Positions 1 through 45,894 of a stretch of 64,000 nt of DNA are shown here, piece by piece (the first letter of the stretch is position 1; each line of letters starts with the position of its first letter). This stretch comes from an uncultured cyanobacterium (GTDB lineage Bacteria > Cyanobacteriota > Cyanobacteriia > Cyanobacteriales > Nostocaceae). Below the pieces are notes generated by a model that saw only the letters and a list, made by a program, of their open reading frames with translations, searched no databases and was not told the DNA's origin. The position numbers and the translations under genes were made by a program. Location of the stretch: contig CAINGU010000059.1 in NCBI GenBank assembly GCA_903848645.1, forward strand, positions 55,038-119,037, written 5' to 3'.

Positions 1-369
1 AATTCCTTGATTTAGCCAAGTTCGATCTTCAGGTAATAACTCCGATGGAAACCATAAACTCAGAGAATCTCCGGCTAGTATGGTTAATCGCTGGGGATTT
101 TTCTGGGCAGTTATTTTAGCTTCTTGCTTGAGGATATCCAACCATTGGGGATAACTAAGTTTATGACGGGGGCCTAACTCTGGTTGTACATATTGATTTT
201 TCCAGTTGAGTTTAACTGGTTCTGGGCGATCTGCGATAGCTGTGGTTGCTAACACAGGGGTTAGTTTATGCTGTCGCCAAATCAACAAGATGACCGCTAA
301 CATGAGGATAACGTTAGTTAACAGTGCGAAGAATCCCCAAGCAGGAAAGGTTTTTACACGATTAGACAC
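1..369 (-). CDS. GDSL/SGNH-family lipase/acylhydrolase, N-terminal part (runs off the window start)
   Basis: Not in the ORF track. Manual translation from GTG at 369: VSNRVKTFPAWGFFALLTNVILMLAVILLIWRQ...RLTILAGDSLSLWFPSELLPEDRTWLNQGI. It has a TM anchor, the GDSL block I (GDSL) and the start of block II (NQGI). Confidence 0.85.
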   Translation of the reverse strand, partial: MSNRVKTFPAWGFFALLTNVILMLAVILLIWRQHKLTPVLATTAIADRPEPVKLNWKNQYVQPELGPRHKLSYPQWLDILKQEAKITAQKNPQRLTILAGDSLSLWFPSELLPEDRTWLNQGI

Positions 370-410
370 GACTAATAAAAATGACCGATATTAAATTTAA
401 TTGTAAATCT

Positions 411-531
411 GGTAATGGGTAATTGGTAATGGGTAATGGGTAATTGGTAATGGGTAATGGGTAATTGGAGAAGGCATGAAAATATTGCCCCTACACCCCC
501 ACACCCCTAAACCCCTAAACCCCTAAACCCC
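411..531. repeat. STRR-type short tandem repeats (GGTAAT[G/T]G arrays and CCCCTAAA arrays)
   Basis: Tandem ggtaatg/ggtaatt units at 411-468 and acccctaa units at about 488-531, between amt1 and the GDSL gene. Typical of Nostocales. Confidence 0.85.
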
Positions 532-537
532 TGCCTT

Positions 538-1956
538 TTACTTATTAGAAATACGATCAGCAAACTCGGAGTTATAACCTTCTTCCCCGTGTTCATTGAT
601 ATCCAAGCCTTGATCTTCTGTTTGATCTGGGACTCGTAAACCGACTGTAGCCGCAATAATTTTGAGAATTATCCAAGTTCCCACACCAGCAATGATATAG
701 GCTATGGCGATCGCTCCTAGTTCCACAAATAATTCACCGAAGTTACCACGCAATACCCCATCTTTACCGCCGCTATTAACTTCAACTGTGGCAAAGATAG
801 CTGTTAAAATCGCGCCTATCGTCCCACCAACGCCATGGACGGGATAGGTATCCAAGGCATCATCAACCCGCAACTTGTGCTTAAAACTGACAGCAAAGAA
901 GCAGACAACAGAGGTAATAAAACCGATTAAAATTGCGGCTACAGGTGTGACAAATCCGGCGGCTGGGGTGATACCAACTAAACCAGCTACTGCACCTGTG
1001 GCTGCGCCTACTGCGGTGGGTTTTCCTCGCAATGTGGCTTCTAAAATCAACCACATTAATGCGCCGGCGGCTGCTGCTGTATTGGTGGCAACAAAGGCTA
1101 CTGTGGCTACTGTGCCTGCGGATAAAGCACTACCAGCGTTAAAGCCAAACCAACCAAACCAAAGTAAACCAGCACCTAACAAAATAAAGGGGACATTGTG
1201 GGGAGGGCTAAGACGATCTGGATAGTTTTTTCTCGGACCGAGGACAATTGCTGCTACTAACGCCGAAACACCAGAACTAATATGCACTACTGTTCCACCA
1301 GCAAAGTCTAGAGCGCCTATCCCACCAGCTAACCCTAAAAATCCTCCTTTTGCCCAAACCATGTGTGCCAGTGGTGTGTAGATGAAAGTTGACCACAGCA
1401 CTACAAATAGACAATAGGCACGGAAACTCATCCGTTCGGCGATCGCTCCTGAAATTAAGGCTGGGGTGATAATTGCAAACATGGCTTGATAGATCATGAA
1501 TGCTTGATGGGGAATTGTCCCCGCATAGGAATTCATATCAGCATAAGCTGGATCTGCGGCTTTGAGGGCATCTTCATAGCCCATGTGGGGTAAATAGCCT
1601 TGGGTTTCTAAACCTATATTCCCAAACATCCAATTCCAACCACCGATGATCGGGTTACCTGGTGCAAAGGAGAAACTATAACCCCAGAGAATCCAGGTTA
1701 CTCCCACAATTGCCATCAACACAAAACTCATCATTAATGTGTTGAGGATATTATGCGATCGCACAAACCCACCATAAAAGAAAGCTAATCCCGGTGTCAT
1801 TAACAATACTAGGGCTGAGGAAATCAGCATAAATGCTGTATCTCCTGTATTAGCAGCAGGTGCAGCCGCTGGAGCTTCTGCAAAGGCATTTCCTGTTAAC
1901 AACCCTACTAGCAGAAATAGGGTTAAACACCCAATGATAACCACTTTTTTGAACAC
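538..1956 (-). CDS. amt1: Ammonium transporter (Amt family)
   Basis: Motifs DFAGGTVVH, LLWFGWFGFNAGS, DDALDTYPVHG. Probable start is GTG at 1956 with GAGG upstream; the ORF track extends to TTG at 2004. Confidence 0.96.
   Translation of the reverse strand: MFKKVVIIGCLTLFLLVGLLTGNAFAEAPAAAPAANTGDTAFMLISSALVLLMTPGLAFFYGGFVRSHNILNTLMMSFVLMAIVGVTWILWGYSFSFAPGNPIIGGWNWMFGNIGLETQGYLPHMGYEDALKAADPAYADMNSYAGTIPHQAFMIYQAMFAIITPALISGAIAERMSFRAYCLFVVLWSTFIYTPLAHMVWAKGGFLGLAGGIGALDFAGGTVVHISSGVSALVAAIVLGPRKNYPDRLSPPHNVPFILLGAGLLWFGWFGFNAGSALSAGTVATVAFVATNTAAAAGALMWLILEATLRGKPTAVGAATGAVAGLVGITPAAGFVTPVAAILIGFITSVVCFFAVSFKHKLRVDDALDTYPVHGVGGTIGAILTAIFATVEVNSGGKDGVLRGNFGELFVELGAIAIAYIIAGVGTWIILKIIAATVGLRVPDQTEDQGLDINEHGEEGYNSEFADRISNK
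707..714. repeat. HIP1 octamer GCGATCGC (one example of about 20 copies across the window)
   Basis: Seen repeatedly, mostly inside coding sequences. A cyanobacterial genome signature. Confidence 0.9.
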
Positions 1957-2007
1957 TTGTTTTCTTTCCTCTAGCTCTACGATGTTGGTCTTAATTAAAT
2001 ACAATTC

Positions 2008-2021
2008 GTAGTATTTGTTAC
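2008..2021. promoter_or_regulatory. Candidate NtcA box upstream of amt1
   Basis: GTA-gtatttgt-TAC (GTA-N8-TAC), 52 nt upstream of the probable amt1 start. amt genes are established NtcA targets. I see no TAN3T -10 element 22 nt downstream. Confidence 0.5.
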
Positions 2022-2309
2022 TTTTTTCTGTCTTAAAAGCTACTCAACTTTTAATTTTGCAGTAAGCTTAACAAAAATATTATCTTTTATGTAACTTAAT
2101 ATTTGCATAGGTATTGATTTTATGATGAAATATTTACATATTGTACTGATGTAAAAAATAGCCTCTTCCATAACTCAGGGAGAGATTAAAATAAAAGTAC
2201 AACTATGAAAAATTGCTTGCTGTCCATACAATATAGACAATTATTCTTAATAATACAGTCCTCTTTAACTGTGTAAAATCTTATCTACCCAATCAAAATT
2301 CTCTTAGTT

Positions 2310-3131
2310 ATGCAATTAGGGATGAAAAAACATAATACTCTAAATAATGCTGCTAAATTAACTGCTTTGCTATGTTTACTCACCATCTTGCTCACGCCTT
2401 GTGTGATAGTTAATGCTGGTGAGCGTGGCGTATTAATGAAGTTTGGTCAAGTCCAAGAACAGATATTAGGAGAAGGTATTCACTTAATTATCCCTGTGAT
2501 CAATACAGTCAAAAAAATTAGTATCAGAATTCAAAAGCAGGAAATATCAACTGAAGCAGCTTCTAAAGATTTGCAAAATATTTTTATAAATGTAGCTCTT
2601 AATTGGCATTTTTTCCCAGATAAAGTTAATAGAATATTTCAACAAATTGGTGATGAGAATCAAGTTATTGAATCTATTATAAATCCAGGAATTGAAGAAG
2701 TATTAAAAGCAGTTATTTCCCAATATACTGCTGAAGAAGTAATTACAAAACGCGGGGATGTTAAGAGAGAGTTAGATCAAGCCCTAACTGTAAGATTAGG
2801 GACTTATAATCTAGAAGTTAATGATATTTCCTTAGTTCATATTCGCTTTTCTGACAAATTCAGAGCAGCAGTAGAATCAAAACAAATTGCCGCACAGGAA
2901 GCAAAGCGGGCTGAATTTATTGCCTTAAAAGCAGTGAAAGAAGCAGAAGTGAAAGTGAATTTAGCAAAAGGAGAAGCAGAGGCTCAAAGCTTGCTCAGAG
3001 AGGTTTTGACACCGGAATTATTACAAAGACAAGCGATAGAAAAATGGAATGGAAAGCTACCGCTAATTATGGGTAAAGATAATTTGAAGCTTTGGAATAT
3101 TCAGGATTTAATTACAGGTAGTGAAAATTAA
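2310..3131 (+). CDS. SPFH/prohibitin (band 7) family membrane protein
   Basis: N-terminal TM segment, then VNAGERGVLMKFG, SKDLQ and a C-terminal coiled coil (AVESKQIAAQEAKRA). Confidence 0.92.
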   Translation: MQLGMKKHNTLNNAAKLTALLCLLTILLTPCVIVNAGERGVLMKFGQVQEQILGEGIHLIIPVINTVKKISIRIQKQEISTEAASKDLQNIFINVALNWHFFPDKVNRIFQQIGDENQVIESIINPGIEEVLKAVISQYTAEEVITKRGDVKRELDQALTVRLGTYNLEVNDISLVHIRFSDKFRAAVESKQIAAQEAKRAEFIALKAVKEAEVKVNLAKGEAEAQSLLREVLTPELLQRQAIEKWNGKLPLIMGKDNLKLWNIQDLITGSEN

Positions 3132-3164
3132 CTTCTGGGGAATATTGGGAAGTAATTCTATCTA

Positions 3165-3611
3165 TCACCCATTGGTAAATAAAATGGGAGTATCAATAAT
3201 CTTCAACTGAATTAAAAGTACAATTAGTAATGTATATATAGTTGAAGAAATGAGACTGTTAAATAACTCTTTTTTGAGATTACGCTCTTGATTTTCTTTT
3301 TGCAACATATCTACTGATCCAAACTGCATCAACAGTATACCTAGAATATTTGATAGCCAGTAGCCAAGAATAGTACAAGGAAAAAGCAATTTAGGCGATA
3401 ATAAACTACATAAATACCCAAAAAAGTAAGCAATGGGTAGGTTAAATAATAAGTCATTCCACCAACATAGAGGAGAAAGCAAGTATCCCAACACTAACAA
3501 GAATCCACCTCTGAGTTTCTTCCAAATGTTCATGCTTGGCTGTGCTAAAGAGATTTGTGTGTTTTCGCTATTGATACTGACTTTTGGACTTTCTGCTTGG
3601 ATGTTGGTCAT
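3165..3611 (-). CDS. Hypothetical membrane protein
   Basis: 148-aa ORF with several hydrophobic segments and an LSPLCWWNDL motif. Co-directional with the upstream tauE-DUF1634 genes. Confidence 0.75.
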   Translation of the reverse strand: MTNIQAESPKVSINSENTQISLAQPSMNIWKKLRGGFLLVLGYLLSPLCWWNDLLFNLPIAYFFGYLCSLLSPKLLFPCTILGYWLSNILGILLMQFGSVDMLQKENQERNLKKELFNSLISSTIYTLLIVLLIQLKIIDTPILFTNG

Positions 3612-3704
3612 AAAACTACACTAATTCTATCGTCTTAGTGTAGTTTAACTTAAGAAGTGAGAAAATGTCCAACATTGAGCAATAGTCATGAGTTGTGGAA
3701 AATA

Positions 3705-4262
3705 TTAGTAATATGCGCCAAGTAGACTATAGGTTAGACTAGCAAGCACTAATGATGTAATGACGACATAGATAAAATTTCGCTGTAAAAGAAAAGTGCA
3801 GAAAGAAATGATCACCCGCAAAATGGGGATAGCAATTAGTATTAACAGCCCTAACTGAATAATTCCCCTTCTGCTACCTGCAAAAACAGCATTCACTACA
3901 CCTATGGGGGAGTGAAACTCAGATGGTGTGCCTATAAAGACTTGATATTCCGCTGGCTCAGAGCCATGATGAATTAAATATAGTATACCCCCGAATAATA
4001 CTATAGAACTAGCGATTAAAACTCCATACTTTAGGAGGTTACTGAGTAAATATTCTAATTGTTTTTCATTTGCTGATTTTGTGAGTTTTTGATGACTAAA
4101 ATTTTCATCATCATGATTTACATTTGCTGCATGATGAAGATGATGTTTTTCTAACTCTTGAATATCACAATCTCGCTCCTCTAATTCAAAAGTGAAAGCT
4201 CCAATTTCTCTTTCTATCTGTGTTGTGCAAGTCCAGCGAAAACCAGAATTTAATTTATACAT
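3705..4262 (-). CDS. DUF1634-family membrane protein with His-rich N-terminal extension
   Basis: C-terminal LLKYGVLIAS...IIQLGLLILIAIPILRV is typical of DUF1634. It starts 2 nt after the tauE stop, the usual TauE-DUF1634 pairing. Confidence 0.85.
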   Translation of the reverse strand: MYKLNSGFRWTCTTQIEREIGAFTFELEERDCDIQELEKHHLHHAANVNHDDENFSHQKLTKSANEKQLEYLLSNLLKYGVLIASSIVLFGGILYLIHHGSEPAEYQVFIGTPSEFHSPIGVVNAVFAGSRRGIIQLGLLILIAIPILRVIISFCTFLLQRNFIYVVITSLVLASLTYSLLGAYY

Positions 4263-4264
4263 AA

Positions 4265-5101
4265 TTACAGCCCTCCTATTAGACTGTTATAGACCATTTT
4301 TAATGCCATTACTACCAATACAAAGCTGAAGATAATTCTTAAAATTTGGGTTTTAGCACCAATTAAAATTCTCGCTCCTAAAAAAGCACCTGGTAACACT
4401 CCCAACATCACCGGCATAGATAAACCTGGATCTATGTATCCCTGGGTTAAATAAACACCTGCTGAGGCTGCGGCTGTGACACCAATCATAAAATTGCTGG
4501 TGGTAGTAGAAACTTTAAAAGGGAGACGCATGGCTTGGTCCATAGCCAATACCTTGAATGCTCCCGAACCAATTCCTAATAAACCAGAAAGCACTCCTGC
4601 TACCAGCATAATACTAAAACCAGCAGGTAAGGCATGAACTTGGTAAGGGATTACACCGTCACCAGTAGGGTAAGTACCATTAAGCTGGAGATATTCTGCT
4701 AAGGGGTCTGGTGGAGAAATTTCTGTTTGTTCTGGTCTGGGGCGTTGAGACAGGTATGCTGAATAAATTAGCACAATAGCCAAAATTAAGGAAAGTATTT
4801 TTACGGTTACATGAGTGGCAATGAGAGCGCCAATCAAAGCTCCAATGGTGGTGGCTACCTCCAGAAACATCCCCAAGCGCAGATTAGCGTAGCCTTTTTT
4901 AATATACGTAGAGGCTGAACCTAATGATGTAGCAATCACTGATACTAATGATGCTCCAACGGCATAGCGAATATCAACACCAAAGACGGAAGTTAATAAC
5001 GGAACTATGACGACTCCACCACCTAACCCAGTTAATGCTCCGACTAACCCGGCACTAAATGATCCCAACCAAACCAGTAAAGAAAATGCTAGTATGCTCA
5101 A
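4265..5101 (-). CDS. TauE/SafE (TSUP) family permease
   Basis: Repeated GALTGLGGG and SGLLGIGSG motifs, KVSTTTSNFMIG, about 8 TM segments. Confidence 0.92.
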   Translation of the reverse strand: MSILAFSLLVWLGSFSAGLVGALTGLGGGVVIVPLLTSVFGVDIRYAVGASLVSVIATSLGSASTYIKKGYANLRLGMFLEVATTIGALIGALIATHVTVKILSLILAIVLIYSAYLSQRPRPEQTEISPPDPLAEYLQLNGTYPTGDGVIPYQVHALPAGFSIMLVAGVLSGLLGIGSGAFKVLAMDQAMRLPFKVSTTTSNFMIGVTAAASAGVYLTQGYIDPGLSMPVMLGVLPGAFLGARILIGAKTQILRIIFSFVLVVMALKMVYNSLIGGL

Positions 5102-5180
5102 TTTGAATTCCTCTTTTTTTAGTCTATATTTATGATGCCTAGATAATTTTTGTCAGCAGGATGTAAATAGAAAACTTCAT

Positions 5181-5819
5181 TTATCTATGCAGAAGATTGA
5201 AGACACTAAAACTATGACTATCGAGGAAGATAAAAGTACCTAATCCGATTAAGATAAAGGGCATAAAACGATTTCCATATTTAGTAAAGATATCAGCGAT
5301 CGCTTGATTGTGAGTTAACTTATGTGCTACATAACACAACACCCCCACCAATGAAAAGAAAACACCCAAAATTACTAATAGACTTTGCCAATTACTGCTG
5401 GCAAATATCGGCACATAAATACTAATGTTATCCGTTCCATTGGCAAATGTGACAGCCGCAACACTATAAGTTTGCAAATTGAAAAATCTCGCTATTAGCG
5501 ATTCCTGAGAAACTTTTGTTTCTGTCTTTGCGTCCTCTAATTCATCTGTTTCTCGATTCATTAAACTCTTGATGCCAATGATAATTGGGACTAAGCCAAA
5601 TAAACCAATCCAGGGACGGGGTAAAATTAATCCGCCGAAAAAACCAGGCAAACTAGCCAAAATCAAAGCCGTAAAACCTAAATATTGACCAATAATAATA
5701 TGCCAGCGGCGAAACTTAGCATCCACCTGAGAGAAAAACAAAGTCAGGATGACTAAATCATCAATATTTGTGGCACTAAAAGCCATTGCTCCGGTACTAA
5801 TTGCAGTTACTACACTCAT
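5181..5819 (-). CDS. cadD: CadD-family (cadmium resistance transporter-like) membrane protein, paralog 1
   Basis: FSATNIDDL, GQYLGF and ANGTDNISIYVP motifs. Probable start is ATG at 5819. Confidence 0.88.
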   Translation of the reverse strand: MSVVTAISTGAMAFSATNIDDLVILTLFFSQVDAKFRRWHIIIGQYLGFTALILASLPGFFGGLILPRPWIGLFGLVPIIIGIKSLMNRETDELEDAKTETKVSQESLIARFFNLQTYSVAAVTFANGTDNISIYVPIFASSNWQSLLVILGVFFSLVGVLCYVAHKLTHNQAIADIFTKYGNRFMPFILIGLGTFIFLDSHSFSVFNLLHR

Positions 5820-5913
5820 AACGATTTTAGATTTTGAATTTTCGACTATCAAAAGATATTGAGTAAGGATTAATGTTGATCCTTCCCAATTACCAATTAC
5901 CTATTTCCAACCC

Positions 5914-7368
5914 TTAATAATTATTTCTTTCTGCGAATCGGGCATGAATATCATCAACTCTTTGGCGAATTCCTGCTACTAAATGGGGAGAACGCTGTTT
6001 TTTGATAAAGAACCAACCGCAAGTAACAGAAAGATACAACAAGAACAAGTAAGGAAAGGTATTATAAGGAGCTTCCGGAATGGGAAATAGGCTACTACCA
6101 GGAATCCCCACACTACCTAAAACTGGGATCATCATAAAGGCTACAGCTAAGACGGCAAATACAATATCTATGGCACGAAGTTTGCTGATTTTGTATAAAT
6201 AGACTGGAGCAGCAACGGAAATCAGAATATAAACAGTTAAAAATCCATAACTACAAATAGCCCCCAAATAGCCCATACAATCGAATAGTTTGATGTGAAA
6301 GAAGGACATCATTGCGGGGATTAAAAATGTCAATAGCGAACACATCGTGACGGCAATATGAGGTGTTCTATTGGCTGCGTGGGCGTTACCTAAAGAGGCA
6401 TGAAACAAACCATGACGAGCCATTAAAAAAGCTACTCTAGCCGCAGGATTGATACTACCAAGAATGCAAGCAAAGAAACTAAACAACGCTCCTAACGCTA
6501 CCAATTCTCCCAAAAAACCCACTCCTGCTTGTCGGGAAAGGAAACCCAAAGGTTCTTCGGTGTCTTTAATTGAGATTCCTGTACCTTGAAAACCCAGAAT
6601 TTCTATATAGGTGGTGGAAATAAAAAATAGCCCTGCAAGGATAACACTACCCATAACGGCTCTAGGTATGGTGCGTAATGGCTTTTTAGCTTCATCACCC
6701 AAGCTAGTCGCACTTTCAAAGCCAGAAAAACCAAACATTACTAATACAAGTCCTGTGGCTACACTACCAGGAGTAACACCAGAAAGGGTGATTTGAGACA
6801 TATCGACAGCAAAGCCTTTGTGCGCCCAAATGATGATACATAAGATACTTATCAACACGAGGGAAGCACCTTCTAACCAAAGCATAGCTACAGCCGAAAG
6901 TTGGATATCTTTGTAAGCTGCATACCAGGAAATCCCTGCACCAATGGCTAACAGTGTGATGCTAGAAGGATGAATACCCAAATGACCAATTAGCATTCCA
7001 CTAAAATTAGCAAATCCGCACAGAACGGACATTCCTGTAAATAAATAAGCCAGCACTAAACTCCAACCGCAAACTACTCCTGCTGTTGGTCCTAAGCCTT
7101 GGGTAATGTAGGAATAGAGAGAACCAGGAGACGCGGAACGACTAGCAAATTGGTTAATGTTAATGCTGACTAACATTAGTCCAATCAACCCAATCACAAA
7201 ACTTAGCCAAGTTCCATTTCCTGAAAGTGCCACAATTAAACCGATATTAGATGCTGGTATGGTTGTGGGGGCAATTACAGCAAATGATTGGGCTAATACT
7301 TCCGAAAAAGATAGGCAATTTGACCTTAATCCATGAATACTTTGATGGGAAGATATTTCTTTGTTCAT
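5914..7368 (-). CDS. APC-superfamily amino acid/amine permease
   Basis: About 12 TM segments. Motifs SPGSLYSY and FSGFESATSLGDEAKKPLRTIPRA. Confidence 0.92.
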   Translation of the reverse strand: MNKEISSHQSIHGLRSNCLSFSEVLAQSFAVIAPTTIPASNIGLIVALSGNGTWLSFVIGLIGLMLVSININQFASRSASPGSLYSYITQGLGPTAGVVCGWSLVLAYLFTGMSVLCGFANFSGMLIGHLGIHPSSITLLAIGAGISWYAAYKDIQLSAVAMLWLEGASLVLISILCIIIWAHKGFAVDMSQITLSGVTPGSVATGLVLVMFGFSGFESATSLGDEAKKPLRTIPRAVMGSVILAGLFFISTTYIEILGFQGTGISIKDTEEPLGFLSRQAGVGFLGELVALGALFSFFACILGSINPAARVAFLMARHGLFHASLGNAHAANRTPHIAVTMCSLLTFLIPAMMSFFHIKLFDCMGYLGAICSYGFLTVYILISVAAPVYLYKISKLRAIDIVFAVLAVAFMMIPVLGSVGIPGSSLFPIPEAPYNTFPYLFLLYLSVTCGWFFIKKQRSPHLVAGIRQRVDDIHARFAERNNY

Positions 7369-8197
7369 TTTAGGGTTTTATGGTTATGGTAAATGACACA
7401 TAATTTGATAGGCTATGGAGAATTATTGATATTTGTCTGATGAATATCTATAAGGCACATTTGTTCATGTTGATTGTGGACAAATGTAATGTAAAGTTTT
7501 CCGTGGGTGTGATGATTTTAGTTTTTGACTCTGCGGTCATAAAATCCGCATATTCATTACACTCTAGCTACTTTAAGTTAGATATTTTAGGCTGGTTATA
7601 TCAATTGTTTGTAAGTCGTAATGGGAAATTTTCCGGGTTATAGATCCTTAAGTGCCAAGTTTTGATAACTTTTGCATCTATGGATACATTTGAATTCAGG
7701 AACTGTGTTTATCTTGACAAATTAAATACTACCTTATCTGTTCGTCGTAAGCAAGTGTTAGATGAAAAATATTTTTAAGCTTGTATCTATAATTTATGAA
7801 TCCCACAAAGTATATCGGAGTTAGTGCTATTTAATTTTAATTAATTATTTGTTTTTATTTCAATAAAATAAGTATTATAAAATACTACATAATCATGCTT
7901 TTATTGGTGGTGTTTTGTGCTTAAATCATTTGTAAGTCTTACTTTAAAAGACAAAACAGGCTAAATATTTATTTACTCTCACGTAAATACTGAGTGTAAT
8001 ACAAATACAGCTAATCTTGTTGCCAACATAAACTGATGATGGTAACTTGATAAAGTAAATTAATTCACGATCAAAACAAAACGGTAATTTTACAGATTTA
8101 TTTTGAAAAGAAAATTAATCTTTCTACCTGATTGTCATCTGAACTACTTTTTTTCATAGTCATTCAGTTAAACATTGCCACAAGGGAAATTACTACC

Positions 8198-8851
8198 ATG
8201 AAAAGCTTGAAGTGTATATTGGTTGTTGCATTGTTGTGTCTCAGTCTAGTATTTACTGAATCTGCACTAGCTGATCCACCAAGATACAATAAAAATCCTG
8301 ATTACATCACATTAACTGAACAACTGAACCAATTAGAAACTGCGAAAGCTACACAAACTCCATTAGCAGGTTATACATCAGAGCAAATTGACCAAAAAAT
8401 TAATGATTTACAGTTTCAAAAATTTGCTTTTGAGTCAGGAATTGACTGGGGACAATGTAGTAATCAAACAGGGAAAACTCTAGCTATATATGGTACAGAA
8501 CCAAATTTACAAAAAAATAATCACTCCAATGGAGCAGCATTATATTTTTTAGGTGATAATCAAACTACAAAAGATAGATGGAATTGTAAAGGAATATATC
8601 TACCCACAGATGTTCAAGCTGTAGCTTTAGGGTTAAATGGACTAACAGAAGAAGTAACTGGTGGTGTTGTTATTAAAGTTCCTAATGGTACTAAATTAGT
8701 CTTGAGAAAAAATCCAGATACTAGCGCAATTGAATTTAATCAAGTGGGGACAGAAATTCTTAAAGCTGGTGAGATTAACTGGTTTGTTCCTAATGTTACC
8801 CAAGCAGTTGTAGATACAAAAGTTACTAACGCACCTGCTAAAAAAGCTTAA
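8198..8851 (+). CDS. Secreted hypothetical protein
   Basis: ATG at 8198 opens a Sec signal peptide (MKSLKCILVVALLCLSLVFTESALA, ending A-L-A). The 192-aa mature region has two Cys. Confidence 0.85.
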   Translation: MKSLKCILVVALLCLSLVFTESALADPPRYNKNPDYITLTEQLNQLETAKATQTPLAGYTSEQIDQKINDLQFQKFAFESGIDWGQCSNQTGKTLAIYGTEPNLQKNNHSNGAALYFLGDNQTTKDRWNCKGIYLPTDVQAVALGLNGLTEEVTGGVVIKVPNGTKLVLRKNPDTSAIEFNQVGTEILKAGEINWFVPNVTQAVVDTKVTNAPAKKA

Positions 8852-8861
8852 TGGTCAGTTA

Positions 8862-8897
8862 GTAGGTTGGGTTGCGTTGTTGCTTAACCCAACCTAC
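8862..8897. repeat. GTAG-type REP-like hairpin (possible terminator)
   Basis: Perfect 12-bp inverted repeat GTAGGTTGGGTT...AACCCAACCTAC just after the stop codon. Same family as 40098-40173. Confidence 0.8.
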
Positions 8898-9132
8898 TCA
8901 ACTCATTTTTCATTAACCTAGACTTTTACAAGATGACGTAAAACCTAGATGTGTAGGGGTCAAGTAAAAGCTAAACCCATACCTATGGAATCAAATGATT
9001 AAGCCATGTTGAGTATATCGTCGTCCAGACAGGAGAAATAATTGGCTGCGGAGTCGTAAAAATCAGGAAATCCTCACTAAAACAACTTTATAGATACTGG
9101 TACTAGACATTTTATTATTTATAAGTTTATAA

Positions 9133-9148
9133 TACAGTAAGTTGATAG
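9133..9148 (+). promoter_or_regulatory. Candidate Rrf2 operator, site B
   Basis: TACAGTAAGTTGATAG, 13/16 identical to the site at the Rrf2 start (12249-12264). Confidence 0.55.
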
Positions 9149-9181
9149 AGATGCCGTAGTTTTTATCAAGAATGGCAGAAA

Positions 9182-9292
9182 CTAGTACACTGCGGCGTAA
9201 GTTAATGGACTATTCTCAATCGTTCAAAAGCTGATTTCATATTACTTTTGACTTTTGATTTTTGACTTTTGACTTCCGCCCTGCGGTACTAG
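9182..9292. mobile_element. MITE-like element with CTAGTAC...GTACTAG termini
   Basis: Terminal inverted repeats and an internal TTTTGAC array. A homologous inverted copy lies at 50141-50237. Confidence 0.7.
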
Positions 9293-9468
9293 GGTTGTGA
9301 TTACAACTTGGTATCAAAAATTACACTTTAAAAGTAATAAAAGTTTACTTACAAGATTTATAAATAGTCATCTTGAACAAACTTAGACGGCGATTTTTTG
9401 TATTCATAAAATTAAGTCTATCCAAACCTATCTTCTTCATTTTTCAACTAACTTACATTAATACGAGT

Positions 9469-10266
9469 ATGGACTACTTATTACTACCAGGTTTCAGCTT
9501 TTTTATTGGCATCATTGTGGGTTTAACAGGTATAGGTGGTGCATCTTTGATCACTCCCATGTTGATTTTTGTTTTTCAAGTCCCACCTTCTATTGCTATC
9601 AGTTCTGATGTGGTTGCAGCCACATTAATGAAAGTAGTAGGGGGAGTGAAACACTGGCAACAGAAAACTCTTGATTTAGAAATAGTTAAATGGCTATCAA
9701 TGGGTAGTGTTTCTGGTTCTTTATTGGGTGTAGGAGTTTTATCCCAACTCAGACAAAGTGGAGAACATAACCTCGATAACCTCTTGCTGCGGTTACTGGG
9801 AGTCATGATTCTGATAGTGACATTGACAGCATTAATACAAATGTTGTTGATGACATTTTTCCCGAAAGTTAATTTACCCGAACTGCCAAAATTAAATTTA
9901 AAAACCAATCAAGGACGTTTTCTGACTTTACTTATTGGCGCAATTTTAGGCTTTTGTGTGGGGATGACAAGCGTTTCATCAGGCTCTATGTTTGCCTTAG
10001 CTTTGATCGCATTTTTCCAGTTAGATGCCCGAAAATTGGTGGGTACAGATATTACTCAAGCCGCCATTTTACTAATATTTACGTCTCTGGGACATCTAAC
10101 TTTAGGAACTGTTGATTGGAGTCTAGTCATACCTATTTGGATAGGTTCTGTTCCTGGAGTTCTTATTGGTGCTAAACTTTGCGACATTACTCCTCAACGT
10201 CCACTAAGATTTATTATCTATAGTATCTTAATGATGGTAAGTTGGAAATTAGTCGCACAAGCGTAA
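9469..10266 (+). CDS. TauE/SafE (TSUP) family permease, second subfamily
   Basis: VGLTGIGGASLITP, GMTSVSSGS and LVGTDI motifs. Probable start is ATG at 9469. Confidence 0.92.
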   Translation: MDYLLLPGFSFFIGIIVGLTGIGGASLITPMLIFVFQVPPSIAISSDVVAATLMKVVGGVKHWQQKTLDLEIVKWLSMGSVSGSLLGVGVLSQLRQSGEHNLDNLLLRLLGVMILIVTLTALIQMLLMTFFPKVNLPELPKLNLKTNQGRFLTLLIGAILGFCVGMTSVSSGSMFALALIAFFQLDARKLVGTDITQAAILLIFTSLGHLTLGTVDWSLVIPIWIGSVPGVLIGAKLCDITPQRPLRFIIYSILMMVSWKLVAQA

Positions 10267-10289
10267 TTACCTTCGTACATCTTTGAATT

Positions 10290-10937
10290 TTAATTTCCCT
10301 GCCCAAATAATAGATTAAATGTCCCTCGTTCATACATAATAAATAGCCCCAAACCAATTAACACAAAAGGGACAATAGCCTGACCATAGCGACTTAAAAT
10401 ATAACCAATGTTAGCTTGACGATTTAATAAATCAGCGATACCGCACCAAATCCCTACCATGCCAAAAAATACTACCAAAATTATTCCTAAACCAACAATA
10501 TCTTGACCTGCAAATAGGGGGATGTAAATACTAATATTATCACCCCCATTGGCAACTGTTACAGCCGCAACTTTATAAGTGTTTGGATGTAAAATGCTTG
10601 ATAAAAAAGAAGATTGAGGGCTATTCTGTTCGGTATTCACTGTCTGAACTTCTCCACTTTCTTCTGCACGATTTACTAATTGCTTGATGCCAATAGCAAT
10701 TGGTAATAATCCTAGTAATCCAATCCATTTTTCTTCTATGACTAAGCCACCAAAGAACCCTGGTAAGCTGAGGATAATAATGGCTGTAAAGCCAATATAT
10801 TGACCGATAAAAATATGTCTACGGCGAAAATTTCTATCTATTTGCGAGAAAAATATTAACAGAATCATGATGTCGTCAATATTAGTAGCGGCAAAGGCAA
10901 TTATGCCTTCTGTAAAAGCAGTAGCAAGCCTATTCAT
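10290..10937 (-). CDS. cadD: CadD-family membrane protein, paralog 2
   Basis: FAATNIDDI, GQYIGF and ANGGDNISIYIP motifs. Confidence 0.88.
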   Translation of the reverse strand: MNRLATAFTEGIIAFAATNIDDIMILLIFFSQIDRNFRRRHIFIGQYIGFTAIIILSLPGFFGGLVIEEKWIGLLGLLPIAIGIKQLVNRAEESGEVQTVNTEQNSPQSSFLSSILHPNTYKVAAVTVANGGDNISIYIPLFAGQDIVGLGIILVVFFGMVGIWCGIADLLNRQANIGYILSRYGQAIVPFVLIGLGLFIMYERGTFNLLFGQGN

Positions 10938-11043
10938 GGTAAACTTGGATAATATACTCTTTAGTAAGAAGTCAGGAGAGGAATTTAAAAAGAAGTCATA
11001 ATAATTGTAACTCTAAATTTAAATTTTATTAAACTTATCTAAA

Positions 11044-11721
11044 ATGAACAATTTATTGACAGCAATTATCACAGGAGTAGTTGCTTTCATTGCCACTAAT
11101 ATTGATGATATTGTGATTTTGTTGGTGTTTTTTTCGCAAGTAAATGAGAATTTTCGCCCTTGGCAAATTGTTGTTGGTCAATATTTAGGTTTTACTATTC
11201 TCGTCATCTTGAGTTTACCTGGTTTATTTGGTGGGCTGATTTTGCCTCAATCATGGATTGGTTTACTAGGCTTAATTCCTATCGCTATTGGTATGAGTAG
11301 CTTAGTGAATAGAGAAACAGAACAATTAGCTGATGTTCCAGAAGATATAATACCATCTGCTACATCAACAAACAATTATTTTTTAACACCACAAATTTAC
11401 ACTGTGGCAGCAATAACTGTGGCGAATGGTAGTGATAATATTAGTATTTATATACCGTTATTTTCTAGCACTCAATTAGAGAGTTTTTTAATAATTATTG
11501 GGTTATTTTTTCTCCTTTTAGCAGTTTGGTGCTATATAGCATATCAGTTAACCCATCAGCAAAAAATAGCTGATTTTTTTACCAATTATGGTAATTATCT
11601 TGTGCCGTTTGTGCTGATGGGTTTAGGGGTTGTAATTGTATGGAAAAGTAAAGCTTTAAATCCGTTAAAACTCCTTGGTAGTTGTATTTGTTTGTTGGTT
11701 TTAGTAAAAAAGGACAATTGA
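11044..11721 (+). CDS. cadD: CadD-family membrane protein, paralog 3
   Basis: FIATNIDDI, GQYLGF and ANGSDNISIYIP motifs. Divergent from paralog 2. Confidence 0.88.
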   Translation: MNNLLTAIITGVVAFIATNIDDIVILLVFFSQVNENFRPWQIVVGQYLGFTILVILSLPGLFGGLILPQSWIGLLGLIPIAIGMSSLVNRETEQLADVPEDIIPSATSTNNYFLTPQIYTVAAITVANGSDNISIYIPLFSSTQLESFLIIIGLFFLLLAVWCYIAYQLTHQQKIADFFTNYGNYLVPFVLMGLGVVIVWKSKALNPLKLLGSCICLLVLVKKDN

Positions 11722-11775
11722 CAAATGAGCAATGATATTTTTTGCTATTTCCATCACCATACTTATTGATAACCA

Positions 11776-12258
11776 CTAAATGTAATACATGGGATTATAT
11801 TGGGCGCGAATCTCTCTTTCTTGACATAAATCTTGGAGTGTATAGCCGCGCAAAACCTCAATCGAAGCCGCGTTAGCTTGCTGCCAGATTTCCAGAACTA
11901 AAATTTTTTCTATGGTTGGAGTCTCGGAGCTTTCTTTCTCTTTCCGTTCACCTTCCACCAAGGTAACAATTTCTAGCAAAGTAATTTGCCAAGGCTCACG
12001 CATTAATACGAAACCTCCTTTTGAGCCACGTTGACTCTGTACTAAACCGGCACGTCGCAGTTGAGTGAGAATTTGTTCAAGATACCGTTCCGGGACGGGT
12101 TGCTTGGCGGCAATCTCGTTCATGGTTAGGGGAACTTTTTTATCGTGATGTCTGGCTAGTTCTAACAGTGCTAGGAGCGCATATTCCACTTTCGCCGAAA
12201 GATCCAGAAGAGCATAGTTTTGACTATTCAAATCTGTATTCAGAATACTACTGTACAT
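11776..12258 (-). CDS. Rrf2-family transcriptional regulator (CymR-like)
   Basis: KVEYALLALLEL, YLEQIL and SQRGSKGGFVL wHTH motifs. Only one Cys; C-terminus PMYYI. The true start may be TTG at 12231. Confidence 0.93.
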   Translation of the reverse strand: MYSSILNTDLNSQNYALLDLSAKVEYALLALLELARHHDKKVPLTMNEIAAKQPVPERYLEQILTQLRRAGLVQSQRGSKGGFVLMREPWQITLLEIVTLVEGERKEKESSETPTIEKILVLEIWQQANAASIEVLRGYTLQDLCQEREIRAQYNPMYYI

Positions 12259-12264
12259 TGATAG
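12249..12264 (+). promoter_or_regulatory. Candidate Rrf2 autoregulatory operator, site A
   Basis: TACTGTACATTGATAG overlaps or immediately precedes the Rrf2 start codon. Confidence 0.6.
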
Positions 12265-12525
12265 ATTTATCGGCTTTTAACCGCAATTAGTTTTATTTTA
12301 AGTGTTAAATGTGATATTATCACACTTGCACTAAATAAAGTATCATAACTCTATCGGATTTAAGGTGATTATCTGCAAAATTCTCAAAATTGCTTAACAC
12401 TCACTTGTCGCACTTCATTTTACAAGAGAAATACAAGTATTAAAATTTACTATATTTTATCTTGTATATACTTGAATGTCATTGGTAATTAATCTGCACA
12501 ACATCCCTGGCTTTTGCTTGTGAAA

Positions 12526-12570
12526 ACCAATTACCAATTACCAATTACCTATTACCTATTACCTATTACC
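12526..12570. repeat. STRR heptamer array (ACCAATT/ACCTATT)
   Basis: About six tandem heptamers; they also encode the last codons (GNR-stop) of the CHASE2 kinase. Confidence 0.85.
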
Positions 12571-14762
12571 AAAGATTTCAAATCATGAAGCACTGCTGTA
12601 GCTGATTGATAGCGATCGCTAAAATGGTAACAAACCATCTTATCTAAAATTGCAGCTAATTTTGTATTAACACTGATCTGATTTTGCCAAACAAAGTTAC
12701 CTGTATGGGGATTAATTTTGAGTTCTTGGGGAGGGATTCCTGTAATTGCTTGAATACCCATCATTCCCAAAGCATAAATATCACTACACAAGCGGGGATG
12801 ACCAGCAAATTGTTCCGGTGGTGCATAACCTTTTGTGCCAATAGCAATTGTTACTGCTGCTATAGATTCATTGATTGATGGCTGGATAAATTTAACTGCA
12901 CCAAAGTCTATTAATACCAATTTATTATTATGAATACATCTCATGATATTTGTCGGTTTAATATCTCGATGAATAACATGATGTTGATGTACAAATACCA
13001 AAATTTCTAATATCTCCTGGAGCATGGAAATAACAAACTCTTCACTTTTGCCATTTTGTTCAGGAGATAATTCTTCACTTAACGTATGTCCTTGAATATA
13101 TTCTTGAACTAAATAAAATTCTTGATTGTCTTCAAAATAAGCCAGGAGTTCGGGAATACAGGGATGTTTGCCTAATGTAGCTAAGATTTCAGCTTCAGTA
13201 TAAAATAATCTGCGGGCTATTTGTAAAAATTTATCATCCTGACGAGCCGGCATTAACTGTTTGACGACACAAATAGGCTCACCTGGACGATGATGATCTT
13301 GAGCTAAATAAGTGCGGCCAAAGCCACCAGCACCAAGGGTTTGTACGATTTGATAACGGCCACCTAATAATAATCCCCCGGTTTTTAATCTAGATATAGA
13401 TGTTTCATATTTAGTAGTAGGGTGATCAGAAATAGATTGTAGTAATGTAGTTTGATTTAATAGTAAATTTAACTGAGAAATTGCTTCTTTTTGTTGTTCA
13501 ACTTGTAAAATAATCCCTTGATTTTTCTGAGTTGTGTAACCCACGATGACAAAACTACCCATGATCAAACTAATCATAGGAGGAATCAAAGGTATCCAAA
13601 TGCCTTGGAGATATAAACCAGCAGCAATTCCCAGCAAACCCATGAGCAGAAAACTAGTCATCACTAGCAACATGAAAATATGTCGCCACTGCCATGCTAA
13701 AATTGCCCCAATTAGAGACCAAACCCAAATCCAACATAATTCCAATTGATCTGGCCAGTAATAAATTAGCGATCGCCCATCTAAGACTGTACTAATAATT
13801 TGACTAGCTATTTGGGCATGAATAAACATCCCAGCTATTCTTGCTGGTTGATCTGGGAGAGAACTGTAGGGAGTATAATAACCAGGATGGACACTATAAG
13901 CAGTAGTTCCAATAATAACTAACTTATCTTTTACCCAATTGGGGTTAACTTGATCTTGGAGAACTTGTGTTAAGGTAACTTGTTGAGCCAGGTGATCAAA
14001 ATGGCGATAATTTAACAGAATTTGGTAGCCGTTAGCATCTGTATTCTGATAACCACCAGCATTTTTATCTAAGCGAGGAAATACTGTTTTGCCAATTTCT
14101 AATTCTTGATTTTCATTAAAATTATATTTAATGCCTTGTTTTTCTAAATAATTAATGGCTAATAAACTAGCAAAGGAAAACTGGGTTACACATTTATTAT
14201 CTGTATGTGTAACTTCAGAAAATAATAAACTCCGGCGCAAAACTTGATCAGTTTCATTATCAGCAAGGACATCATTAAAACCCACATTCTCCATCGGGAA
14301 GTTAGGAGGTGGGGGAACTTCTGATCTACCAATATTGCTTAATAAACAAGTGGTGAAAATATTTTCTTTTTTTGGTAAATTAATTCCTAAATTCTTTTGT
14401 TCTGGACGATAAATATTTAAACCAATTACACGGGGTTGATGAGATTTTAATTTAGCTAATAATGTATTAATAGTTTTGTCAGATAAAGGCCATTTCTCTT
14501 GTTTGAGATCCTCTTCTGTAATTGTGACTAATAAAATCCGCCCATCTGCGGGTTCTAAAGGACGCGATCGCAACATTAAATCATAAGCACCTAACTCCAA
14601 TTTTTGCAACCATTTCAGTTCTCGTACTCCCCAAACTAACCCTGTTACCCCTATACTCGTTAGAAAAATGACAATTAACCAATTATAGGCAGCAACACTA
14701 CCAAAAGAATCCTGAGTTTTGAACAACCCAGTCCTAAATTTTGCAAGAATTCCCTTAATCAC
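12552..14762 (-). CDS. CHASE2-domain Ser/Thr protein kinase
   Basis: Extracytoplasmic CHASE2 region (DGRILLVTITEEDL, GMFIHAQIASQII), 3 TM segments, and a kinase domain with GAGGFG, HRDIKPTN, DFG and GYAPPEQ. Confidence 0.95.
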   Translation of the reverse strand: MIKGILAKFRTGLFKTQDSFGSVAAYNWLIVIFLTSIGVTGLVWGVRELKWLQKLELGAYDLMLRSRPLEPADGRILLVTITEEDLKQEKWPLSDKTINTLLAKLKSHQPRVIGLNIYRPEQKNLGINLPKKENIFTTCLLSNIGRSEVPPPPNFPMENVGFNDVLADNETDQVLRRSLLFSEVTHTDNKCVTQFSFASLLAINYLEKQGIKYNFNENQELEIGKTVFPRLDKNAGGYQNTDANGYQILLNYRHFDHLAQQVTLTQVLQDQVNPNWVKDKLVIIGTTAYSVHPGYYTPYSSLPDQPARIAGMFIHAQIASQIISTVLDGRSLIYYWPDQLELCWIWVWSLIGAILAWQWRHIFMLLVMTSFLLMGLLGIAAGLYLQGIWIPLIPPMISLIMGSFVIVGYTTQKNQGIILQVEQQKEAISQLNLLLNQTTLLQSISDHPTTKYETSISRLKTGGLLLGGRYQIVQTLGAGGFGRTYLAQDHHRPGEPICVVKQLMPARQDDKFLQIARRLFYTEAEILATLGKHPCIPELLAYFEDNQEFYLVQEYIQGHTLSEELSPEQNGKSEEFVISMLQEILEILVFVHQHHVIHRDIKPTNIMRCIHNNKLVLIDFGAVKFIQPSINESIAAVTIAIGTKGYAPPEQFAGHPRLCSDIYALGMMGIQAITGIPPQELKINPHTGNFVWQNQISVNTKLAAILDKMVCYHFSDRYQSATAVLHDLKSLVIGNR

Positions 14763-14858
14763 AATATTGAGGTATAAACCTGGATATGTAGCAGGTGACA
14801 GAATTGAAAGTCCTTGATTCTGTACTTAATTTACCTGCAATATGGTACATATAGCAAT

Positions 14859-15203
14859 TTATTCTCTTGAATCTTGAATATCCGATACCGGGGTAGATAT
14901 TGATAAAGAAATCGGAGTTGAGTTTACTGCTGATTCCAACTTCGGTACTTCCCCAGGGGTGATGACAGGGGTATTCCTGAAGTAAGAAGGCAAAATCTTA
15001 TCATAGTTAGAGGCAACTGCTAACAATGCCCCTCCTAAAATATAGATGGGTAATGGGACGGAAAAACCTCGTAACCACTTAAAAAACTCCGCTAAAGCAA
15101 ACAGGACAAAAAAGCATACAAGCCAAACTTTCATAAGTTTATTTGTTCGATACGATGTTATCTTCTCACTAATTTTAGTTTTTTTGGATTGAGAATAAAT
15201 CAA
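14859..15203 (-). CDS. Hypothetical membrane protein
   Basis: 114-aa ORF with two hydrophobic segments (MKVWLVCFFVLFALAEF; LPIYILGGALLAVASNY). The start may be the internal Met. Confidence 0.75.
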   Translation of the reverse strand: MIYSQSKKTKISEKITSYRTNKLMKVWLVCFFVLFALAEFFKWLRGFSVPLPIYILGGALLAVASNYDKILPSYFRNTPVITPGEVPKLESAVNSTPISLSISTPVSDIQDSRE

Positions 15204-15228
15204 TTAAAAGTTAAAAATTACAAAAAAC

Positions 15229-25525: not shown

Positions 25526-25566
25526 GGGATGTCCTTAAATTGGTTTGAATATAATCTACGAAAACT

Positions 25567-25582
25567 CTGTCGAGATACAGTA
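25567..25582 (-). promoter_or_regulatory. Candidate Rrf2 operator, site C
   Basis: Minus strand reads TACTGTATCTCGACAG, 12/16 identical to site A, 42 nt upstream of the sbp start. Confidence 0.5.
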
Positions 25583-27125: not shown

Positions 27126-27138
27126 TTAACAAGCCCTG

Positions 27139-27244: not shown

Positions 27245-27281
27245 CTGAATTTCTAAATAACAACTAAAAACCAACTAAATT

Positions 27282-45858: not shown

Positions 45859-45894
45859 TTAAATACGTTTAATCTATTGATTTATTTAAATTTA

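Follow-up and report, generated by a model that had tools for sequence, protein, structure and literature searches.

We analyzed a 64,000-nt stretch of DNA from an uncultured cyanobacterium of the Nostocaceae (GenBank assembly GCA_903848645.1, contig CAINGU010000059.1; hereafter "the window", meaning this whole stretch) and found that a 26-bp palindrome, the candidate operator TACGGTAAnTCGATCGAnTTACCGTA, connects part of a transporter gene cluster with known sulfur genes. The cluster ends at the gene of an Rrf2-family regulator. We consider it rather probable, on sequence grounds, that it belongs to a two-layer sulfur island, in which a CymR-type repressor circuit is accompanied by a layer of CadD, APC, and sec239 genes linked to it by neighborhood. 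We observed directly the gene order kept in relatives, the distribution and geometry of the operator, and the conservation of the regulator's C-terminal tail.

Family calls in the window were made with Pfam and NCBIfam profile searches, and the genes under discussion are as follows.

2310-3131 (+): band-7/SPFH (prohibitin-like) protein (band7), a conserved neighbor
3165-3611 (-): hyp148, small membrane protein (precomputed Pfam PF25937, uncharacterized)
3705-4262 (-): DUF1634 membrane protein (Pfam DUF1634, 100 bits)
4265-5101 (-): TauE1, the second TSUP/TauE permease (Pfam TauE, 166.2 bits)
5181-5852 (-): CadD1, CadD/LysE-superfamily transporter (Pfam Cad, 123.6 bits; TIGR00779, 144.3 bits)
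5914-7368 (-): APC-superfamily permease (Pfam AA_permease, 81 bits; NCBIfam matches weak)
8132-8851 (+), longest open reading frame (ORF), likely start 8198: sec239, secreted protein (no Pfam match)
9373-10266 (+), longest ORF, likely start 9469: TauE2, TSUP/TauE-family permease (Pfam TauE, 142 bits)
10290-10937 (-): CadD2 (Pfam Cad, 114.4 bits)
11044-11721 (+): CadD3 (Pfam Cad, 103.6 bits)
11776-12258 (-): Rrf2-family regulator, CymR-like (Pfam Rrf2 PF02082, 119.6 bits, residues 20-146)
24440-28977: sulfate ABC uptake genes sbpA (-), sbpA2 (+), cysT (+), and a CysW-like gene (+)

An earlier note on this DNA had described the nine genes from DUF1634 to Rrf2. All nine ORFs are present, Pfam agrees with the families it named, and seven of the nine encode membrane proteins, as it had said. 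It had counted five or more transcription units, and strand and spacing suggest six to seven: APC, CadD1, TauE1, and DUF1634 form a probable operon with APC as its first gene (gaps of 61, 79, and 2 nt), and sec239, TauE2, CadD2, CadD3, and Rrf2 stand as separate units. Because of Pfam domain offsets and the sequence itself, we place the true starts of sec239 and TauE2 later than those of the longest ORFs. The described extent was sound as far as it went, but hyp148 and band7 lie outside it, and the cluster of the window is a reduced version.

The ~190 nt 5' of Rrf2 are conserved across the Nostocales, including the window, despite a different upstream gene in the window, and one block of this region, TACGGTAAGTCGATAGA, is half of the 26-bp palindrome. 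The window genes were mapped by tblastn onto 80 Rrf2-anchored and 80 APC-anchored loci with 10-kb flanks; leftover ORFs of these loci were clustered, and representatives were scanned with Pfam and NCBIfam. From 96 sites we built a position weight matrix (PWM) with consensus TACggTAAnTCGATCGAnTTAccGTA, and the threshold for an operator was 9.9 bits, the 99th percentile of shuffled upstream regions. By gene, we found the operator upstream of cysE in 96%, of the NIL-domain gene in 94%, of Rrf2 in 85% (a second paralogue included), of hyp148 in 78% (n=50), and of TauE2 in 62% (n=72). A middle group comprised TetR (44%), band7 (39%), Crp (32%), LysR (26%), PAP2 (26%), and APC (14%, the site being shared with the divergent LysR). 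The low group held TauE1 (8%), sec239 (7%), and CadD1, CadD2, CadD3, and DUF1634 (0% each); coding windows gave 0.3%. Corroborating these results, an unbiased 9-mer screen returned ATACGGTAA, the known half-site, as the sole word common to at least three gene families.

The palindromes of the window are as follows.

3617-3642 (-): operator of hyp148, TACACTAAGACGATAGAATTAGTGTA (22.3 bits)
9133-9158 (+): operator of TauE2, TACAGTAAGTTGATAGAGATGCCGTA (25.7 bits)
12249-12274: O2, operator-like palindrome over the Rrf2 start codon (17.5 bits)
12310-12324: second palindrome TGTGATAATATCACA, near-perfect, 15 bp, between O1 and O2
12341-12366 (-): O1, degenerate palindrome at the Rrf2 promoter (11.8 bits)
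25557-25582: operator of the sulfate-binding-protein gene (22.8 bits)

Four hits in the window reach 17 bits or more, against 0.023 expected from the shuffle control, and three reach 22 bits or more, against none in 300 random windows. The site at sbpA and a genome-wide exact scan, given below, are independent of PWM training. Two further matches were treated as chance or marginal: one at 45864 (11.6 bits) between Acr3-like and Nif3-like genes, and a half-site at 8080 (9.0 bits) upstream of sec239.

The position of the operator relative to the promoter was the same at several genes. Generic promoter and terminator counts in the window are at chance level, and for promoter prediction we used the single best match alone, and only after the operator had pointed there. 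At TauE2, the first T of the operator is the last T of TATAAT in the best sigma70-like promoter (9104-9133). At hyp148, TGGACA-18-TAAACT precedes the operator, and 5 nt separate the operator's end from the ATG. This overlap of the palindrome's first T with the last T of the -10 hexamer (TauE2, TAGAC-N17/18-T[AT]AAA|T; hyp148, TTAAAC|T) recurs at the Rrf2 (ATAAAC|T) and NIL (TTAAA|T) promoters of relatives, and O1 in the window begins one base after a GATAAT -10-like hexamer, a one-base offset versus relatives. Hence, the palindrome starts in the -10 hexamer and extends over roughly -7 to +19, a repressor-type placement.

Two other elements lie in the Rrf2 promoter. The second palindrome, TGTGATAATATCACA, is kept across the Nostocales as GTGGGATGCTATCACAT; we ruled it out as a regulon motif with its single occurrence in the window, and a second regulator may bind there. 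A TGGGAATT / GAGAATT box stands upstream of the -10 region in Rrf2 promoters (window 12376-12390; loci L020-L080), with an inverted AATTCCCA arm ~22 nt upstream of it in Nostoc, and NIL promoters have a similar TGGGAAT. The box is similar to the B. subtilis CymR box at its ...GGAATT end, and inside the cluster we found no convincing further sites for it.

The operator also marks sulfur genes outside the cluster. In the window, the site at 25557-25582 is directly upstream of the sulfate-binding-protein gene sbpA (24440-25525, (-); TIGR00971, 281 bits versus a cutoff of 155.5), after which come the paralogue sbpA2, cysT (TIGR02139, 417 bits versus 246), and a gene that is CysW-like by eye. A sub-threshold operator (8.8 bits) lies at 25967-25992, 20 nt upstream of sbpA2. 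This sulfate ABC locus has no cysA after the CysW-like gene; the next gene, 29125-31629 (-), is PriA-type-helicase-like by eye.

We searched 596 Gb of species-representative genomes for exact copies of TACNGTAANTCGATNGANTTACNGTA and obtained 29, versus ~1 expected by our own estimate; at least 26 of them are in records titled cyanobacteria. Their flanking genes include SsuD (645 bits versus a cutoff of 510), the SsuA family (231 versus 163.5), SsuB-like ATPases (five loci), TauD-like dioxygenases (three loci), an SsuE-like FMN reductase, a MetQ/NlpA-like lipoprotein, porins, two Crp-family genes, and a NIL gene. Two of the 29 palindromes are upstream of a GroES gene in Nostoc (L180:2229-2540, L184:2181-2492), which makes GroES an unexpected candidate for the regulon unless chance or a divergent promoter accounts for these sites.

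Similar results were obtained on two plasmid-type regions. In the deep-branching Pseudanabaena sp. ABRG5-3, plasmid ABRG53c has its top PWM matches in the gap between band7 and cysA, upstream of cysK-cysE-Rrf2, upstream of a porin, and 5 nt upstream of the hyp148 homologue that heads a hyp148-TauE2-PAP2 string. In the pANL-like region of S. elongatus UTEX 3055, the best PWM match is ~35 nt upstream of the Rrf2 gene and the second-best is upstream of an ABC-transporter operon; cysK (srpG), cysE (srpH), and srpI of this region are induced by sulfur starvation (PMC8049743). Because the operator is common to them and to sulfate-binding-protein, ssu, and tauD-like genes, TauE2, hyp148, and Rrf2 appear to belong to a sulfur regulon. 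The proposed link of the cluster to sulfur thus gained ground through the operator at Rrf2, TauE2, and hyp148 and at the sulfate-binding-protein, ssu, tauD-like, and cys genes.

The Rrf2 protein itself resembles CymR. It has a single cysteine (QDLCQ, residue 145) with none in the 90-110 ligand region, so that the three Fe-S cysteine ligands of IscR and NsrR are missing. The closest solved structures are 4cic and B. subtilis CymR 2y75 (E 3.6e-17), and identity to CymR is ~30-40% as read from alignments. The window protein ends in PMYYI. Among 55 distinct C-terminal tails of homologues, some from paralogues with less than 55% identity, every one fits M[YF][YHF]I; MFYI is the ending in S. elongatus and Pseudanabaena. 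In S. aureus, the C-terminal decapeptide of CymR is EDLDGYMFYI, crystal structures and surface plasmon resonance place YMFYI in the CysK active site with nanomolar affinity, and the preprint with these data states that no bacteria other than Gram-positives have yet been seen to have CymR (bioRxiv 10.1101/2024.09.19.614015). The CymR-CysK complex represses cysteine-pathway genes (PMC2869319). As a positive control, 29 of 30 neighboring CysE proteins have the ending DGAGI. We infer that PMYYI is the equivalent of the CysK-docking tail of CymR, the docking being predicted. The call of a CymR-like regulator was borne out by the absence of Fe-S cysteines, by the M(Y/F)YI tail, and by the pairing of Rrf2 with cysK described next.

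The neighborhood is conserved well beyond the window. Where both genes are present, we found strict pairing for APC-CadD1 (73/73), TauE1-DUF1634 (55/55), and Rrf2-cysK (84/84). CadD lies directly downstream of APC on the same strand in 69 of the 80 APC-anchored loci, which also contain sec239 (67), TauE (58), hyp148 (49), DUF1634 (45), band7 (42), and Rrf2 (31) and which span the Nostocales, Oscillatoriales (Microcoleus, Planktothrix, Kamptonema), Leptolyngbya-like taxa, Chroococcus, Snowella, and Coleofasciculaceae. Cysteine synthase A (CysK TIGR01139, 461 bits versus a cutoff of 351) directly follows Rrf2 in 62 loci, serine O-acetyltransferase (CysE TIGR01172, 252 bits versus 211) is divergent from Rrf2 in 46, and a Crp-family regulator (63 loci), a NIL-domain protein (33), and a PAP2 phosphatase (46) accompany them. 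The cluster is far from a chance juxtaposition, and gene-neighborhood comparison, the check that the earlier note had proposed, found its genes recurring together across cyanobacterial orders.

Gene order differs by lineage. Outside the Nostocales, LysR is divergent from APC in 31 loci and DUF202 is present in 27; the typical order is band7> LysR< APC> CadD> CadD> sec239> DUF202> (TauE1> DUF1634>) PAP2 TauE2< hyp148<, with Rrf2, Crp, cysE, and cysK near this string. The divergent CadD2/CadD3 pair beside Rrf2-cysK is kept in the Nostocales. hyp148, which has 955 homologues, mostly annotated as hypothetical, and no match in a local Pfam search, adjoins TauE2 in the same direction in eight non-Nostocales loci and on the Pseudanabaena plasmid. 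Window TauE2 is 61% identical to that plasmid's copy, which follows hyp148. Distant homology between hyp148 and DUF1634 was ruled out (hhalign probability 1.7%). Plasmid ABRG53c holds the full set in one ~21-kb block, together with cysA, a sulfurtransferase, an SsuA/PhnD-type binding protein directly after CadD-sec239-DUF202, and cysK-cysE-Rrf2; there a 'prohibitin family' band7 is divergent from cysA with the operator in between.

Many genomes seem to have two CymR-like regulators in the island. A second Rrf2 paralogue, 43-49% identical to that of the window and with a MYYI-type tail, is divergent from band7 in Oscillatoriales and others (L104, L111, L116, L119, L121, L123, L125, L135), and in some of these loci the shared promoter holds the operator.

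In comparison, the window has lost several members. cysK, cysE, Crp, LysR, PAP2, and DUF202 were not found within its 64 kb, and because they are missing, the window appears to carry a reduced Dolichospermum/Anabaena-type copy of the larger neighborhood. Relative to the closest relatives, PAP2 is cleanly deleted between sec239 and TauE2 (window 8852-9470), the gap between Rrf2 and CadD3 (11722-11775) is only 54 nt and lacks cysK, and synteny is lost immediately 5' of the Rrf2 promoter, with a CHASE2-like Ser/Thr kinase gene (12552-14762) in place of cysE and Crp. A search of the window gaps for pseudogene remnants of LysR or PAP2 found none. The window proteins are 92-95% identical to those of Dolichospermum sp. 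LEGE 00240 and Anabaena sp. WFMT, which assigns the window to the genome of a planktonic member of the Nostocales.

The remaining genes of the cluster lack the operator. We found none in the window before CadD1-3, DUF1634, or APC, and the 9-mer screen gave no motif common to the CadD, APC, sec239, and TauE1 promoters. The proposal of one regulated module therefore did not hold, as the operator frequencies given above for CadD1-3, DUF1634, TauE1, sec239, and APC show; outside the Nostocales, the APC-CadD-sec239 string instead adjoins a divergent LysR gene. Footprinting by conservation of the divergent CadD2/CadD3 region gave a promoter-like block near the start codon only and no palindrome.

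For the CadD proteins, we aligned the three window paralogues with three from Pseudanabaena and two Firmicute plasmid proteins named as CadD family by PGAP (Enterococcus, Alkalihalophilus), one of whose genes adjoins cadC and a heavy-metal P-type ATPase. T28, D31, D32, N138, G139, N142, Y146, P148, F150, and C173 are invariant in all eight sequences; they include the TNxDD, N-G-x-x-N, and Cys motifs, which all three window paralogues retain. CadD1-3 exceed the Pfam Cad gathering cutoff of 26.2 bits, and their TIGR00779 scores (144.3, 142.5, and 135.4 bits) are all below the cutoff of 181.65. Nothing in the CadD sequences points to a switch to sulfur oxyanions, and the suggestion that CadD handles sulfur substrates found no support, with the Firmicute plasmid CadD-family invariants retained in every paralogue. 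A 'membrane protein' beside a Cd-ATPase on a Calothrix plasmid was rejected as a CadD.

The other members are less familiar. TauE1 and TauE2 have full-length TauE domains (PF01925) above the gathering cutoff of 32.6 bits. The APC permease belongs to an uncharacterized cyanobacterial subfamily of high conservation, with 66-95% identity across orders and two outliers at 54-55%. In sec239, the signal peptide ends ALA|D and two cysteines are invariant, which makes its description as a secreted protein reasonable; its 91 homologues are all from cyanobacteria, hypothetical, and without Pfam assignment, and its confident AF2 model (pLDDT 84.9) found no fold match in the PDB (best Foldseek E-value 0.13).

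Most likely, these second-layer genes serve thiol- or sulfur-linked homeostasis of cations (metals) or amino acids and not direct transport of sulfur oxyanions. The idea of sulfur flux coupled to metal detoxification fits better than sulfur transport by CadD, although it stays at the level of a suggestion. In that respect, cysK recurs on three cyanobacterial plasmids (L189, L190, L191), two of them with Rrf2, beside genes related to metals or oxyanions, namely those for chromate transport, a copper-binding four-helix protein, MgtC/SapB, a P-type ATPase that translocates Cd, czc efflux, and a SulP sulfate transporter. Such company would suit a general link between cysteine supply and metal stress.

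Alternatively, CadD, APC, and sec239 could be an ordinary metal-resistance or amino-acid transport island that merely travels along, for example as accessory, plasmid-borne DNA, with no functional coupling. The absence of the operator from CadD promoters, its rarity at APC and sec239, the lack of another common motif, and the retained CadD invariants all suit this view, as do the more than 1,300 Firmicute plasmids with CadD homologues, the plasmid location of the Pseudanabaena block, and the losses in the window lineage, by which the set appears dispensable piecemeal. Yet the association outlasts extensive rearrangement in Nostocales, Oscillatoriales, Leptolyngbya-like taxa, Chroococcales, and Pseudanabaenales, the SsuA/PhnD-type gene directly follows CadD-sec239-DUF202 on the Pseudanabaena plasmid, and the operator is present between the divergent LysR and APC genes in 26% of LysR upstream regions. 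As weak evidence, expression of a CadD gene increased alongside that of sulfate transporters in a Chlorogloeopsis coculture (PMC11423583). We regard mere co-travel as unlikely.

In the two-layer reading, which we prefer, the island would be ancient and rearranging across cyanobacteria, with the window as a trimmed copy. In layer 1, the Fe-S-less Rrf2 protein, with its predicted CysK-docking tail, is most likely what binds the 26-bp palindrome. By analogy with Firmicute CymR, CysK would stabilize Rrf2 binding under sulfur sufficiency, and under sulfur limitation O-acetylserine would accumulate and Rrf2 would be released; we infer the operator's binder, this CysK/O-acetylserine switch, and every substrate. 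The predicted targets in the window are Rrf2 itself, TauE2, hyp148, and the sulfate-binding-protein gene 13 kb away, and in other cyanobacteria cysE, the NIL-domain gene, cysA, ssuA/B/D, and tauD-like genes. We predict that sulfur starvation induces TauE2 and that TauE2, whose partner in the ancestral operon is hyp148, takes up a sulfur oxyanion or organosulfonate. Layer 2 (APC-CadD1-TauE1-DUF1634, sec239, CadD2, and CadD3) would be tied to the circuit by neighborhood only and would accompany changes in cysteine supply.

Several results weigh against this reading. O1, the site at the window's Rrf2 promoter, is weak, and the TauE2 and hyp148 sites are not independent of the PWM, as orthologous promoters were in its training set. 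The palindrome is apparently unlike the CymR box of B. subtilis and other Firmicutes. Six of the nine cluster genes are without the operator. The score of the window Rrf2 protein against the NCBIfam CymR equivalog NF047409 is 94.8 bits, below the cutoff of 195, and for this reason we file it as CymR-like and not as a CymR orthologue. Since the 64-kb window has no cysK, the proposed co-repressor would need a gene elsewhere in the genome. Finally, a Crp-family gene with a conserved C-terminal Ile stands beside Rrf2 in most relatives, and Crp-family genes are downstream of two of the 29 exact genome-wide sites.

This last point leads to another candidate for the binder, a Crp-family (CysR-like) regulator, with Rrf2 controlling something else, for example via the GGAATT-type box or TGTGATAATATCACA. 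In its favor, the Crp gene accompanies Rrf2 and cysE in the 63 loci mentioned, the Crp protein ends W[YH]Y[EQ]I in 53 of 53 distinct tails (e.g. L191:20346-21023), and the Rrf2 promoter holds other conserved elements, the TGGGAATT box among them. Moreover, CysR is the sole experimentally known sulfur regulator of cyanobacteria, with an undefined regulon and no published operator (PMC11420160). Rrf2 is favored nonetheless, because the site spans the -10 box and transcription start as a repressor site would, whereas CysR acts as a positive regulator (PMC12016511). It is favored also because the operator precedes 85% of Rrf2 genes (second paralogue included) versus 32% of Crp genes, because the window retains Rrf2 and four strong sites with no Crp gene in 64 kb, and because of the 26-bp length of the palindrome and the strong conservation of its center, TCGATCGA. 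Crp/Fnr/NtcA motifs have 14-16 bp in two half-sites, and Rrf2 operators have 23-27 bp, closer to the length found here. We judge a Crp-family binder to be quite improbable.

The conserved Crp-family tail suggests that this second regulator may also bind CysK. A possible, still doubtful, extension is that CysK is the shared sensor of two adjacent regulators, an Rrf2 repressor with M(Y/F)YI and a Crp activator with W(Y/H)YEI, in which case the CysK active site would be contested by both regulators, the CysE tail (DGAGI), and O-acetylserine. The palindrome would then mark their pan-cyanobacterial regulon, which would add hyp148-TauE2 as a new sulfur-uptake system and be physically coupled to a CadD/APC/sec239 module that buffers thiophilic metals during shifts in thiol pools.

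It is very unlikely that the module is an overflow valve that exports cysteine, O-acetylserine, or sulfite, with TSUP for sulfite or sulfoacetate and CadD and APC as thiol or amino-acid exporters against cysteine toxicity: the Pfam name 'sulfite exporter TauE/SafE', the cysteine and O-acetylserine exporters of the LysE superfamily, and the nearness of cysE and cysK speak for it, but TauE2 has its operator in common with the uptake and scavenging genes sbpA, ssuABD, tauD-like, and cysA, which serve under sulfur shortage, where opposite regulation would be expected of an exporter, and the acidic motifs of CadD point to cationic substrates.

Other features of the window were recorded in passing. 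The APC/sec239 divergent spacer is 830 nt long and has a ~150-nt block (7703-7853) that is 68-71% conserved in several Nostocales and that matched neither Rfam nor proteins; a search of positions 1-16000 for riboswitches and known RNAs in the long intergenic gaps gave no Rfam match at E<=1. Short intergenic tandem heptamer repeats (TTTTGAC and CCAATTA/CCTATTA types) at 9240-9280, 12531-12570, and 5883-5908 are of a kind typical of cyanobacterial STRR elements and lie within the cluster. The DNA of CadD1-3 is ~73-76% identical over parts of its length. At 40180-40446, a gene for an 88-aa single-NIL-domain protein, related to the 214-243-aa double-NIL protein of relatives, adjoins 37982-40096, which is TonB-dependent-receptor-like by eye; no operator was detected at this window NIL gene.

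Cyanobacterial sulfur regulation is poorly resolved, CysR alone being known as a regulator (PMC11420160), and a Synechocystis Rrf2 is listed as 'IscR, not studied' (PMC7058544). The accessible literature gave no account of the cluster, of the palindrome, of DUF1634 with TauE, or of a cyanobacterial CymR, and work in subscription journals may exist. If the reading is right, a concrete operator sequence and a candidate repressor would make the regulon directly testable, and the CymR-CysK enzyme-regulator switch would extend beyond Gram-positive bacteria. Several families that are 'hypothetical' or carry misleading names would also gain a first clue to function (hyp148/PF25937, TauE2, the NIL-domain protein, sec239, and the CadD and APC subfamilies of cyanobacteria), and a sulfur-responsive promoter with its operator could be useful in cyanobacterial engineering. 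Dolichospermum-type freshwater bloom-formers meet limiting sulfate at times, so the trimmed copy of the window is of ecological interest. Of greatest interest, in our view, are the operator, the presence of a CymR-type tail on an Rrf2 protein from cyanobacteria, and the possibility that a Crp-family regulator also docks on CysK.

Among known systems, CymR-CysK of B. subtilis and S. aureus is similar in its winged helix without the three Fe-S cysteine ligands, its M(F/Y)YI-COOH tail, its genetic coupling to cysK/cysE, its repressor geometry, and, as predicted for the cyanobacterial regulon, its control of sulfur-source uptake and cysteine-synthesis genes. It differs in that CymR is Gram-positive and the window system is cyanobacterial, with a 26-bp perfect-type palindrome, a regulon that adds hyp148, NIL, and TauE2, and an Ile-tailed Crp-family regulator alongside. 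The CysR/srp region of S. elongatus pANL is similar in its sulfur-starvation response, with sbpA/cysTWA, plasmid cysK (srpG), and cysE (srpH), and the pANL-like region has an Rrf2 protein with a MFYI tail; no role is assigned to the Rrf2 gene of the srp region in the accessible literature. Unlike the island described here, the pANL-like region lacks CadD, APC, and sec239, and no TauE is annotated in the stretch examined.

CadD of Firmicute plasmids (TC 2.A.77, LysE superfamily) has the same Cad domain, ~210-aa length, and TNxDD, N-G-x-x-N, and Cys motifs. In contrast, the cyanobacterial proteins are 35-41% identical to it, occur as three paralogues per locus, score below the TIGR00779 cutoff, and have no cadC/cadX-type regulator nearby and sit in a sulfur/cysteine neighborhood, not in a cad operon. 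TSUP proteins are poorly characterized; they have been connected with sulfur compounds, with sulfite, sulfonate, and sulfate as transported species, and one of them is a sulfate importer (PMC5840216). The window copies have the full-length TauE domain in common with the TSUP permeases TauE, SafE, TsaS, and C. glutamicum CysZ but no characterized close relative, and they differ in that each has its own small membrane partner, DUF1634 for TauE1 and, ancestrally, hyp148 for TauE2, with the operator on TauE2 only.

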